Virus record (IMG/VR): IMGVR_UViG_2571042487_000002
Coordinates: 1 to 34,042 of that record
From: a virus
Lineage: Duplodnaviria > Heunggongvirae > Uroviricota > Caudoviricetes
Length of the DNA stretch: 34,042 nucleotides
Direction: 5' to 3' (one strand)
Part shown: positions 50-2,314 of the stretch, in pieces
Numbering within the stretch: the stretch's first letter is position 1
How the letters are laid out: the number at the start of each line of letters is the position of its first letter
Notes under the pieces: model-generated
What the model was told of the DNA's origin: nothing
What the model saw: the letters and a program-made list of their open reading frames with translations, nothing else
Database searches by the model: none
Program-made: the position numbers and the translations under genes

Positions 50-2314
50 GTGAAAGAGCTGTGCTATGGATCTGTTTGCAGTGGAATTGAAGCCGCGAGT
101 ATTGCCTGGGAACCGTTGGGTATGCGTCCGGCGTGGTTTGCTGAAATCGAGCCTTTTCCATCTGCCGTTCTTGCGCACCGCTGGCCCCATGTCGCCAACC
201 TTGGCGACATGACAAAACTTGCCAAAAAAGTCCTGGCTGGGGAAATCGAATCCCCTGATGTGCTCGTCGGGGGTACGCCTTGTCAGGCATTCAGTATCGC
301 GGGCTTACGTGGTGGGCTTGATGATGAACGCGGCGCGCTAACTTTGAAGTATGTGGAGCTTGCAAATGCAATTGACGACAAACGGTCTGAGTCCTTCCTC
401 AAACCGACAGTTATCGTCTGGGAAAATGTCCCAGGAGTCCTGTCATCGGCAGATAACGCCTTCGGATGTTTCCTTGCCGGATTGGCTGGAGAAGATGCGC
501 CATTTGAACCAGGTGATCGACCTGAATCAGGAAAAAGTAACGCGTTCTGGCGGTGGGATGGCAAAACCGGTTGCCATGCTCCAAAGTGGCCGCAGTGTGG
601 TTGTATTTATGGACCGCAGCGAAAGGTGGCCTGGAGAATCCTTGATGCCCAATACTTCGGAGTGGCACAACGACGCCGACGCGTGTTTGTTGTCGCAAGT
701 GCTCGAACAGACCTCGATCCCGCAACGGTACTTTTTGAGTTCGAAGGCGTGCGCCGGGATATTGCGCCGAGCCGAAAAAAGAAGGAAATCGCTTCCGCCA
801 TTATTGCAAATGGCGCTGCAATCAGTGGCGAAAGCCTAAATCCATGCCTACACGCTGACATTCCACCCGGTATGAAATCGACGAAAGCCGTAAACGCTTT
901 CAGGATGGCAGCATTTGGGGAATATATTGACGATGAAACCGCATCGACAGTAAAGGCAAGAGATTTTAAAGATGCCACTGACCTTGCCGTTTTTAGCAGC
1001 ACAGGAGCAGGTTTTTGGTCAGAAGGGCATGGTACATTGCGGGCACGTGAGCAAGAAAGCCATGAGCATCTTGTTACATTGGCTTTTCCTGAGCGTATGA
1101 GCGGTACACAACATGCTGCAACTAAGAATACTTCACCATCTCTAATGGCTAAAAATCCAACAGCTGTTTGCTATGAAGTAAGAAACGCAGAAGTAGCTGT
1201 CCGCCGTCTTACCCCTGTCGAATGTGAAAGGCTGCAAGGTTTTCCTGATGGGCATACGTTGATCCCGACGGAAAAGCGTAAAAAAGTTAATTCAGATGAA
1301 CTGGCATATCTTCGCAATCACTATCCAGATTTAAGCGAAGAAGAGGCCGCGATGCTTGCAGCTGACGGACCGCGTTACAAAGCGATCGGCAATAGTATGG
1401 CAATACCAGTAATGCGCTGGATTGGCGATCGGATTACTAAGGCCGTATGTCGGCAGAAAGAAGGAAGTAAAACAAAAGAGCGAAAAGTTAAACCAGCGGC
1501 AGAATTCGAACGGTCCATATTCAAATGGGCTGGTGGAAAATTTGGTGTTCTGGAACAAATCTTTCGCTATTTGCCAGAAGGGAAGCGCCTGATTGAACCT
1601 TTCGTTGGTGGCGGAGCTGTCTTCATGAATGCCGGATACCAGGAAAATCTGCTAAATGATGTGAATGCTGACCTGATTAACTTTTACAAGACTCTGCAAC
1701 GCGAGGCGCATTCACTTATCACTCTGGCACATCGTTTCTTCCAGGACTACAACACACAGGAAGGATACCTGGCAGTACGGAATGCGTTTAACAAACAAGT
1801 CTATGATGATTTACATCGCGCAGCGGCGTTTTTGTTCCTGAACCGACATTGTTTTAACGGATTGACGCGTTACAACCAGGCCGGTGAGTTCAATGTCGGT
1901 TATGGGAAGTATAAAACTCCGTATTTCCCATTACAGGAGATGGAAGCCTTCCTCGGTGCGGAAGGGCGGTCTGAGTTTGTATGCGGTGATTTTGCAGCGG
2001 TGATTGAAGCTGCCGGAGAAGGAGATGTCATCTTTTGCGATCCGCCGTATGAACCGCTTCCAAATACAGAGGGATTCACGAACTATTCCGGTCATGACTT
2101 TAAGTTTGAAGAGCAAAAACGCCTGGTGTCTCTGTTGACGGATGCTCATCGTCGAGGTGCAAAGGTTCTCATTACTAACAGTGGCGCGCCAAATATCAGA
2201 GAGCTTTATCATGACAGTGGCTTCAGAGTGGAACCTCTTTTTGCCAGACGTTCTGTGTCTTGTAAGGGGGACACTCGAGGTGTAGCTCATGACGTTTTAG
2301 GTATATTGCTCTAA
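50..2314 (+). CDS. dmt: Bifunctional DNA methyltransferase: N-terminal C5-cytosine MTase domain fused to C-terminal Dam-like N6-adenine MTase domain
   Basis: 754-aa ORF with GTG start at 50 just after an in-frame stop. N-terminal half has C5-MTase motifs GGTPCQAFSIAG (PCQ) and VWENVPGV (ENV); C-terminal half has Dam-type FKWAGGK and catalytic DPPY (FCDPPYEPL). Size and architecture match P1 Dmt. Confidence 0.9.
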   Translation: MKELCYGSVCSGIEAASIAWEPLGMRPAWFAEIEPFPSAVLAHRWPHVANLGDMTKLAKKVLAGEIESPDVLVGGTPCQAFSIAGLRGGLDDERGALTLKYVELANAIDDKRSESFLKPTVIVWENVPGVLSSADNAFGCFLAGLAGEDAPFEPGDRPESGKSNAFWRWDGKTGCHAPKWPQCGCIYGPQRKVAWRILDAQYFGVAQRRRRVFVVASARTDLDPATVLFEFEGVRRDIAPSRKKKEIASAIIANGAAISGESLNPCLHADIPPGMKSTKAVNAFRMAAFGEYIDDETASTVKARDFKDATDLAVFSSTGAGFWSEGHGTLRAREQESHEHLVTLAFPERMSGTQHAATKNTSPSLMAKNPTAVCYEVRNAEVAVRRLTPVECERLQGFPDGHTLIPTEKRKKVNSDELAYLRNHYPDLSEEEAAMLAADGPRYKAIGNSMAIPVMRWIGDRITKAVCRQKEGSKTKERKVKPAAEFERSIFKWAGGKFGVLEQIFRYLPEGKRLIEPFVGGGAVFMNAGYQENLLNDVNADLINFYKTLQREAHSLITLAHRFFQDYNTQEGYLAVRNAFNKQVYDDLHRAAAFLFLNRHCFNGLTRYNQAGEFNVGYGKYKTPYFPLQEMEAFLGAEGRSEFVCGDFAAVIEAAGEGDVIFCDPPYEPLPNTEGFTNYSGHDFKFEEQKRLVSLLTDAHRRGAKVLITNSGAPNIRELYHDSGFRVEPLFARRSVSCKGDTRGVAHDVLGILL

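Follow-up and report, generated by a model that had tools for sequence, protein, structure and literature searches.

The 34,042-nucleotide window (the whole stretch of viral DNA analysed here) opens with a reading frame that carries a cytosine and an adenine methyltransferase core in one polypeptide, and holds further on a packaging site built around GATC. This raises the question of what each half does for the phage, and in particular whether the cytosine half is an active enzyme. With high confidence, we propose the following overall explanation: the window would be part of a natural E. coli P1-like phage-plasmid with this frame as its dmt gene, the Dam half would gate cleavage at pac, and the C5 half would be active and serve against restriction. 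The dmt gene and the methylation-gated pac site are already known, so the finding itself re-identifies a textbook P1 element and leaves understanding unchanged; its residual value is practical.

A P1-type dmt gene and its neighbours

The frame begins with GTG and its 754-aa product aligns over its full length with Dmt of phage P1 (AAQ14041.1), with 747 of 754 residues identical. The DNA is 99.3% identical to P1 dmt, i.e. 15 differences in 2265 nt, and the seven substitutions, read from P1 to the window, are W74G, N237D, R241S, M271I, S274G, E474K and T526M. By sequence comparison, the ORF is phage P1 dmt, predicted to encode the bifunctional DNA methyltransferase. P1 Dmt (GenBank AF234172 / NC_005856; formerly 'P1 dam') displays the same domain order, the same motifs and the same P1-type cassette, and in P1 the GTG start likewise overlaps the hrdC stop, with the Oban operator downstream (coordinates of all features are given in Table 1).

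The position of the gene is conserved relative to P1, with hrdC upstream and Oban, the tRNAs and ban downstream, the P1 coordinates being 65510-66415 for hrdC and 66412-68676 for dmt. The TGA stop of hrdC (51-53) and the GTG start of dmt (50-52) overlap as GTGA, and a Shine-Dalgarno-like GGAGAGG is found at 36-42, ahead of the dmt start. At the other end, Oban overlaps the dmt stop codon (2312-2314), where the next operon (tRNAs, ban) begins. This layout suggests that dmt would be translationally coupled to hrdC through the GTGA overlap, within a C1-repressed operon, and because of this repression it would be expressed on induction or infection. A strict consensus scan of positions 1-3000 returned neither a sigma-70-like site nor an internal promoter that could yield a Dam-only product, though the P1ban and P2ban promoters are annotated at ~2289-2334; since the scanner is too strict for these annotated promoters, its null result is not evidence of absence. 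Rfam returned three tRNAs only, the annotated 'dicF-like region' lying below every gathering score.

Table 1. Features of the window discussed in the text (aa numbers refer to the dmt product)
Feature	Positions	Strand	Basis
hrdC (RdgC-family) 3' end	1..53	+	frame-3 translation ends ...GGEAKQ and stop
dmt, C5-cytosine half + Dam-type N6-adenine half	50..2314	+	profile matches, P1 identity
C5-MTase core, N-terminal part, aa 1-240	50..769	+	aligns to M.HhaI motifs
Variable cassette, presumed target-recognition domain (TRD), P1-type, 144 aa, aa 241-384	770..1201	+	swapped among alleles
C5-MTase core, C-terminal part, aa 385-470	1202..1459	+	motif IX RRLTPVECERLQGFP (aa 385-399), motif X AIGNS (aa 445-449)
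Lys-rich linker joining the methyltransferase halves, aa 471-488	1460..1513	+	between both Pfam/NCBIfam domain matches
Dam-type N6-adenine MTase half, aa 489-754	1514..2311	+	profile matches, Dam structure alignment
Divalent C1-repressor operator Oban(a,b)	2305..2332	.	both 17-mers identical to P1-annotated ones
pacA (pacase subunit A), pac site inside	29790..30983	+	ORF, P1 match
pac HEX4, four TGATCA hexamers	29983..30022	.	starts 29983, 29990, 30002, 30017
pac IHF binding site (AAACAAAGGGTTA)	30045..30057	.	P1 match
pac cleavage region	30065..30074	.	equivalent to P1 90804-90813; 20-mer around annotated cleavage sites identical to P1
pac HEX3: TGATCG, TGATCA, TGATCA	30113..30141	.	starts 30113, 30125, 30136
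pacB (pacase subunit B / large terminase)	30983..32467	+	P1 match

The Dam-type half and the pac site

The C-terminal half matches PF02086 (D12 N6-adenine MTase) over aa 493-725 with 192.8 bits (Pfam cut-off 22) and the dam model TIGR00571 with 249.8 bits (NCBIfam cut-off 114.85). Its motifs follow the alpha-class order, KWAGGK at aa 492-497, FVGGG at 518-522 and DPPY at 664-667, the codons of the latter beginning at nt 2039 and themselves containing a GATC. DPPY, F518 and G520-G522 are kept in 120 of 120 homologue clusters, as are W493, G495, G496 and K497 of KWAGGK, whose A494 is replaced by V in 90 of the 120. The E. coli Dam structures (PDB 2g1p, 4gbe) align over the full length of this half (E = 3e-58), and K9, N120, L122, R124 and Y138 of Dam, its main GATC-contacting residues, align with K492, N603, L605, R607 and Y621 of Dmt. 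The host-Dam equivalog NF008152 scores 244.4 bits, below its 441-bit cut-off, and the protein is thus assigned to the Dam family but not as an orthologue of chromosomal dam. On these profile and structure matches, the C-terminal half is predicted to be a full-length Dam-family enzyme.

The presumed substrate lies in the same window. The pac site as a whole spans 29983-30141 inside pacA and the region compared is identical to P1 at 259 of 261 nt, sharing with it the 4 + 3 arrangement of TGATCA/G hexamers, the cleavage region and the IHF site. Not one base differs within the seven hexamers; of the two point differences, the A-to-G change at 30053 falls in a non-specified part of the IHF consensus and the one at 30122 falls between hexamers. 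An extra TGATCG is found at 30164, beyond the canonical seven. In contrast to pac itself, pacA and pacB outside pac are only ~93% identical between P1 and the window, those of vB_EcoM-673R5, RCS47 and JL22 being nearer (98-99%). When the window was simulated 300 times with a first-order Markov model, no run reached seven TGATCR within 160 bp (the highest count was 4), and pac is the densest GATC cluster in it. A genome-wide enrichment of GATC was considered as a signature and rejected, with 126 sites observed versus about 132 expected over the window.

In P1, according to PMC10028697 and PMC12707154, the latter citing Sternberg & Coulby (1990), pac measures 161 bp, lies within pacA and comprises seven TGATCA/G hexamers that carry the Dam site; pac cleavage depends on methylation, and Dam- hosts require dmt. 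The sequence-only reading had proposed a single 754-aa ORF joining an m5C core (PCQ, ENV) to a Dam core (WAGGK, DPPY), and a GATC-based substrate logic visible in the TGATCA/G hexamers of pac inside pacA. The profile matches above the Pfam and NCBIfam cut-offs and the located motifs bear out the former, and the seven hexamers found, 4 + 3, the latter. Its statement that control of pac cleavage by Dam methylation is established P1 biology agrees with the DNA identity to P1 and with these published accounts.

From the 99% identity to P1 we infer that the Dmt of the window would methylate GATC adenine, as established for P1, and thereby support pac cleavage. The seven GATC-containing hexamers lie on either side of the IHF and cut sites, and their methylation would have to precede cleavage of pac by the PacA/PacB pacase, from which headful packaging would start. 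With its own Dam, the phage would have newly replicated concatemers methylated quickly, and carrying this enzyme would make it independent of host Dam.

Alternatively, both halves could be mainly self-protecting, anti-restriction methylases with pac control a secondary role, which we consider possible but rather unlikely. As the majority of E. coli hosts are Dam+, host Dam would normally supply the GATC methylation, pac control would become secondary and the phage Dam would be redundant for pac in such hosts. Two divergent Dam-half alleles (median 71% identity to that of the window) have moreover recombined onto the same C5 core, which shows modular exchange of both halves, and phage-borne orphan methylases are commonly protective according to PMC4190342 and PMC12707154. 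However, experiments on P1 described in the literature cited above document its need for methylated hexamers, as well as for dmt where the host is Dam-, and the window keeps each of the hexamers intact. We thus retain for the Dam half a role in gating pac.

The cytosine half, its cassette and position 74

The N-terminal half matches PF00145 (C-5 cytosine DNA methylase) with 125.4 bits (Pfam cut-off 22) and the dcm model TIGR00675 with 116.5 bits (NCBIfam cut-off 100.65). Motifs IV, VI, VIII, IX and X of C5 enzymes are all present in canonical order: motif IV is GGTPCQAFS at aa 74-82, with PCQ at 77-79 and the catalytic Cys78 at nt 281-283, motif VI is ENV at aa 125-127, motif VIII is QRRRR at aa 207-211, and the GNS of motif X lies at aa 447-449. 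Motif I reads SVCSGIEA (aa 8-15), i.e. SGIEA instead of the usual GxGG, the second Gly of FxGxG being replaced by Glu; this variant is family-wide (about 140 of 150 diverse subfamily representatives) and, judging from the family, is probably functional for AdoMet binding.

Loss of catalytic residues in homologues, which the sequence-only reading had named as a reason to abandon its proposal, was looked for and not seen, both cores being kept in about 120 of 120 homologue clusters. For the C5 half, Pro77, Cys78, Gln79, Glu125, Asn126, Gln207, Arg208, Arg209 and Arg211 are kept in all 120 and Asn448 in 119. For the C5 core, dN/dS comes to 0.16 versus P7 and 0.19 versus JK004, indicating purifying selection. 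In an AlphaFold2 model of aa 1-480, the core has a pLDDT above 90, and its top Foldseek matches are M.HhaI, M.HaeIII and DNMT1/3 with a probability of 1.00. The conserved-core and variable-cassette layout is shared by a family of 4,476 clusters at 50% identity (E <= 1e-30), and many phages also encode the C5 core by itself, as a separate enzyme.

Lying between motifs VIII and IX, where C5-MTases carry their TRD, the cassette is presumed to be that domain. In the window it is composed of a module b (...AFGEYIDDETASTVKARDFKDATDLAVF...GTLRAREQESHEHL) and a module d (TLAFPERMSGTQHAATKNTSPSLMAKNPTAV). P7 Dam (AAQ07538.1), SJ46 Dmt, RCS47 Dmt and gp31 of Cronobacter phage JK004 are allelic forms of the same fusion, whose C5 core, linker and Dam half are 92-98% identical to the window in P7, SJ46 and RCS47 and 58% identical in JK004, the linker alignment of the latter having a 10-aa gap. 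Between flanks that are 92-98% identical, P7, SJ46, JK004 and other alleles carry a cassette that is unrelated in sequence and either shorter or longer, with 62 aa in P7, some 200 aa in SJ46 and some 240 aa in JK004. The cassette consists of several sub-modules bearing 'TL'-type motifs, two in the P1-type allele of the window, one in P7 and three or four in SJ46. In the AlphaFold2 model the cassette has a pLDDT below 50, from which the number of recognition modules is not readable. A search for homologues of the cassette by itself (query aa 235-386) returned only 8 fragmentary matches and no characterised enzyme, the matches being named no further than generic 'cytosine methyltransferase'.

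Position 74, three residues before the catalytic Cys, is a near-invariant Gly throughout the family, and the window has Gly. The Trp is restricted to the laboratory P1 reference, being absent from every carrier of the dmt segment, whether E. coli genome (331) or plasmid (353). Over the C5 half, the window and reference P1 differ by 6 nonsynonymous and 0 synonymous changes. In RCS47 and in a 'P1 del res del mod' isolate, Dmt is interrupted at its catalytic Cys by an intein of 341 aa, a Hint plus LAGLIDADG element inserted between Pro77 and Cys78; it is present in relatives only, the GGTPCQAFS of the window being uninterrupted, and a literature search on inteins in P1-like methyltransferases found nothing relevant.

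Taken together, the kept catalytic cores, the purifying selection on the C5 core and the swappable cassette argue that the N-terminal half is active in making m5C, with a specificity that varies from allele to allele. Its target would be set by the cassette, here of the P1 type, different alleles would protect different sites, and its most likely use would be to shield the DNA of the phage, on entry into new hosts, from restriction enzymes that are cytosine-sensitive. A more specific version, which we put forward only tentatively, is that the active C5 half would be programmable by allele, its target or targets being set by the mosaic 'TL' cassette, which P1-like phage-plasmids would exchange to escape different restriction systems, with the corollary that laboratory P1 may be C5-defective (G74W). 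If true, this would account for the lack of any cytosine methylation assigned to P1 Dmt. Passage through McrBC+ K-12 may have selected for the G74W change.

We consider it unlikely that enzymatic relevance is confined to the Dam half, with the C5 half a catalytically silent remnant or serving non-catalytically, for instance by binding DNA or by positioning the Dam half. Literature searches for m5C activity of Dmt or a P1 methylome found nothing relevant, and the sources searched attribute no m5C site to P1 Dmt. The missing second glycine of motif I, the nonsynonymous-only differences from reference P1 and the Trp that laboratory P1 bears at position 74 with no apparent harm would also fit a silent half, as does phage D6, a P1 relative that manages on a Dam-only protein. 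GenBank AF234172 annotates a bifunctional methyltransferase that methylates the adenine of GATC 'and perhaps' a C5 cytosine; the cytosine specificity is indeed less clear, as the sequence-only reading had cautioned. However, a silent half would not be expected to keep its catalytic residues nor so low a dN/dS, and the same core exists on its own in many phages. Unless specificity is under selection, the swapping of a cassette at the TRD position is likewise difficult to account for. Inteins typically occupy functionally constrained sites, and the one in relatives persists at the catalytic Cys. We therefore favour an active C5 half.

Distribution of the fusion and comparison with known systems

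The dmt segment is present in 331 of 5,426 complete E. coli genomes, about 6%. That an assembly error or a frameshift fused two separate genes into the 754-aa ORF, as vB_EcoM-673R5 might suggest with its separate annotations ('DNA adenine methylase' and '5-methyl-cytosine DNA methyltransferase') and a match in 3 pieces, is extremely improbable and was rejected, because the fusion is uninterrupted in P1, P7, SJ46, JL22, JK004 and hundreds of independent plasmid copies and a single profile, phrog_116, spans both halves as one family. P1-like phage-plasmids, present in about 6% of these genomes, carry resistance genes, so what their methylases guard them from bears on their host range. As the allele of the window is natural and has the canonical Gly74, the conserved catalytic residues, purifying selection and cassette swapping make C5 activity worth testing on natural alleles of this kind rather than on reference P1.

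Compared with E. coli Dam, which has no C5-MTase fusion, Dmt has F602 for Y119, G617 for P134 and K620 for R137. The monospecific enzymes M.HhaI and M.HaeIII share with the C5 half the motif order, the variable region between VIII and IX and the fold, at a sequence identity of ~15%; the window differs from them by the SGIEA variant of motif I and by extra insertions between VI and VIII and between IX and X. The C5-MTases of the Bacillus phages SPR and phi3T are multispecific, and the multi-module cassette of Dmt resembles theirs, a separate target for each sub-module being putative here.

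The P1 dmt gene and its setting

The sequence-only reading had taken dmt for a single polypeptide with a C5-cytosine and a Dam-type half, and the ORF list, Pfam and NCBIfam bear this out. The N-terminal part matches PF00145 (C-5 cytosine DNA methylase, 125.4 bits) and the C-terminal part PF02086 (D12-class N6-adenine methyltransferase, 192.8 bits, aa 493–725) in Pfam, while NCBIfam places the protein above the cut-offs of both the Dam family TIGR00571 (249.8 bits vs 114.85) and the dcm superfamily TIGR00675 (116.5 bits vs 100.65). All of the motifs named in that reading are present (PCQ, 77–79; ENV, 125–127; WAGGK, 493–497; DPPY, 664–667), together with the further C5 motifs QRRRR (207–211), RRLTPVECERLQGFP (385–399) and GNS (447–449), and the Dam-half AdoMet motif FVGGG (aa 518–522). 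By score, fold and the motifs other than motif I, Dmt belongs to the C5-MTase family; motif I of the C5 half reads SGIEA, an unusual variant found family-wide. The fusion is already modelled as a single family in PHROGs (phrog_116). The DPPY codons (window 2039–2050, GAT CCx ...) themselves include a GATC, one of seven such sites in dmt.

Window positions 9–2500 are 99.3% identical to positions 66370–68862 of phage P1 (AF234172.1), where the gene is dmt, annotated as a bifunctional DNA methyltransferase acting on N6 adenine in GATC and “perhaps” on C5 cytosine; the two proteins differ at 7 of 754 positions. As in P1, the hrdC stop overlaps the dmt start (GTGA, 50–53), and the neighbours on the 3′ side are tRNA-Asn, tRNA-Thr, a CAT-anticodon tRNA and ban. 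By identity, synteny and motifs, this ORF is P1 Dmt in the strict sense.

Table. Coordinates of dmt, pac and related features. Positions are those of the window unless a locus is named.
Feature	Position	Strand	Remarks
dmt ORF	50..2314	+	GTG start; 754 aa; from the ORF list
Oban, divalent C1 operator	2305-2332		overlaps dmt stop; identical to P1
pacA, encloses pac	29790..30983		pacB next
TGATCA/G hexamers, group of four	starts 29983, 29990, 30002, 30017		inside pacA
TGATCA/G hexamers, group of three	starts 30113, 30125, 30136		inside pacA
pac difference from P1	30053		A-to-G; non-specified part of IHF site
pac difference from P1	30122		A-to-T; between hexamers 5 and 6
Intein-bearing Dmt locus, RCS47	L005:601-3885		FO818745.1 72249-75536
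Intein-bearing Dmt locus, OP279344.1	L008:301-3339		

From end to end the window is collinear with P1 66.4–94.8 kb, save for three stretches: the tciA region, a post-tRNA indel and 19027–26792. The tciA region has no P1 alignment at 3943–4534, where the TerB-like gene is diverged or replaced (ORF 4069–4503), and a small insertion lies at 3234–3408, downstream of the tRNA-Asn/tRNA-Thr pair. The accessory segment 19027–26792 (~7.7 kb) stands where P1 has ~2.3 kb (pmgU to lxr) and codes for two Ead/Ea22-like proteins and one DUF551 protein; it also holds several ORFs that match nothing in Pfam. P1-like E. coli plasmids commonly have segments of this kind, and the window resembles the ~95-kb non-mobilizable members of that group; the dmt segment occurs in 331 of 5,426 complete E. 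coli genomes (about 6%). An Rfam search of the whole window returned only three tRNAs at the gathering score, with the equivalent of the P1 “dicF-like region” (2430–2530) falling below it.

The Dam half and the pac site

The Dam half aligns over its full length with E. coli Dam crystal structures (E = 3e-58) and retains the residues aligning with K9, N120, L122, R124 and Y138, which we take to be the GATC contacts of the E. coli enzyme. Against the host-Dam equivalog, Dmt scores 244 bits, under the 441-bit cut-off, and is a Dam-family member rather than an equivalog. Two Dam-half alleles, ~71% identical to each other, are found on a C5 core that is ~95% identical (window 1514–2311 compared with the 762-aa homologue class, e.g. 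P0003–P0090); recombination has therefore made the Dmt fusion a mosaic, its breakpoint lying close to the linker.

The pac site had been read as lying inside pacA and built of GATC-containing TGATCA/G hexamers, and all seven hexamers were located there, in keeping with the 161-bp P1 pac and its seven TGATCA/G repeats, each with a Dam site (PMC10028697). Seven TGATCR within 160 bp never arose in 300 Markov simulations (maximum 4), and the GATC count of the window as a whole is as expected (126 vs about 132), so that the cluster is a local feature and not one of composition. All but two of the 261 nt around the hexamers are identical to P1, and each of the seven hexamers has its P1 counterpart in the alignment, as have the IHF site and the annotated cleavage positions. 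The remainder of pacA and pacB is only ~93% identical to P1, so that conservation is higher at pac than around it; the site is the canonical P1 pac. An eighth hexamer, TGATCG, stands at 30164–30169, 23 nt past the group of three; P1 has one too, outside the published seven.

That Dam methylation controls pac cleavage, as the sequence-only reading noted, is established P1 biology according to two publications. PMC10028697 cites earlier proposals that the pacase binds hemimethylated pac and that more methylation promotes cleavage; the review PMC12707154 states, after Sternberg & Coulby (1990), that P1 requires Dam methylation at pac, so that dmt is essential in Dam− hosts. With 99% identity to P1, the same steps would operate in the window. 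The dmt and pac finding as stated is already known and contains nothing new.

Conservation of the C5 half and the laboratory P1 reference

Homologues keep the catalytic residues, whose loss had been named beforehand as evidence against a C5 plus Dam enzyme: Pro77, Cys78, Gln79, Glu125, Asn126, Gln207, Arg208, Arg209 and Arg211 are present in all 120 fusion cluster representatives, as is DPPY, and Asn448 in 119. Judged from substitution rates, purifying selection is acting on the C5 core, with dN/dS of 0.16 vs P7 and 0.19 vs JK004, similar to the Dam half (0.14 vs P7). The predicted structure of the core is confident (pLDDT above 90), and its fold matches those of M.HhaI, M.HaeIII and DNMT structures. 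Its domain family is very large, mostly stand-alone and phage-associated (4,476 clusters at 50% identity, E <= 1e-30), with the DPPY fusion in only 11 of the best 150 of these clusters.

Codon 74 lies three residues ahead of the catalytic Cys. It encodes Trp in the laboratory P1 reference (TGG, 3262–3264 of its locus, L001) but Gly in the window (GGG, 269–271) and in every other sequence examined. When 67 sequences from diverse members of the family are aligned, Gly75 proves invariant and Gly74 at least 90% conserved. None of the 331 E. coli genomes and 353 plasmids with the segment contains the exact P1 61-mer. Between the window and P1, the C5 half shows 6 nonsynonymous and 0 synonymous differences, and the Dam half 1 and 8, respectively; of the seven protein differences, four (G74W, S241R, G274S and M526T) occur in the P1 reference alone, as judged against the other sequences aligned there. 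Given Trp74, the missing 61-mer, the 6:0 differences and the private changes, our hypothesis is that the C5 half of the laboratory P1 reference may be impaired, or else that the bases in question may be sequencing errors.

The intein and the swappable cassette

An insertion of 341 aa, in frame and placed precisely between Pro77 and the catalytic Cys78, is present in RCS47, vB_EcoM-Ro157c2YLVW and a “P1 del res del mod” isolate. It is identified as an intein by its Cys start, its His-Asn end and its Hint_2 and LAGLIDADG_3 matches above cut-offs. The intein accompanies P1-type and P7-type cassettes alike (17 of 120 representatives), and among 150 diverse representatives of the family, 6 have an HN|CQ junction of the same kind. 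The window is free of it, GGTPCQAFS running uninterrupted at nt 269–295, and our literature search found no paper mentioning a Dmt intein.

In C5 methyltransferases, the target-recognition domain lies between motifs VIII and IX. In Dmt, this interval, the putative recognition domain, is a swappable cassette (aa 241–384, window 770–1201), replaced in P7 (62 aa), SJ46 (~200 aa), JK004 (~240 aa) and several other alleles between flanks that are 92–98% identical. Cassettes among the alleles measure 62, 100, 144 or 236–252 aa, the window having the 144-aa P1 type, which is the commonest. Comparing window 770–1201 with the matching parts of loci L003, L004 and L006 and of homologues P0026, P0091 and P0096, we found mosaics of about six recurring sub-modules, shuffled among alleles and most of them with a terminal “TL”-type motif; the P1-type cassette of the window has two. 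The cassette has a pLDDT below 50 in the predicted structure, and a homology search with it found no characterised relative.

Taken together, conservation, selection, fold, family and cassette swapping speak for an active m5C enzyme with a specificity that would depend on the allele, and the most economical reading is an anti-restriction role of the C5 half. That the C5 activity is allele-programmable, possibly multispecific, and that reference P1 is a C5-defective mutant, is a tentative and rather doubtful proposition, which would be of moderate interest if true. In its cassette mosaic, Dmt is reminiscent of the multispecific phage C5-MTases.
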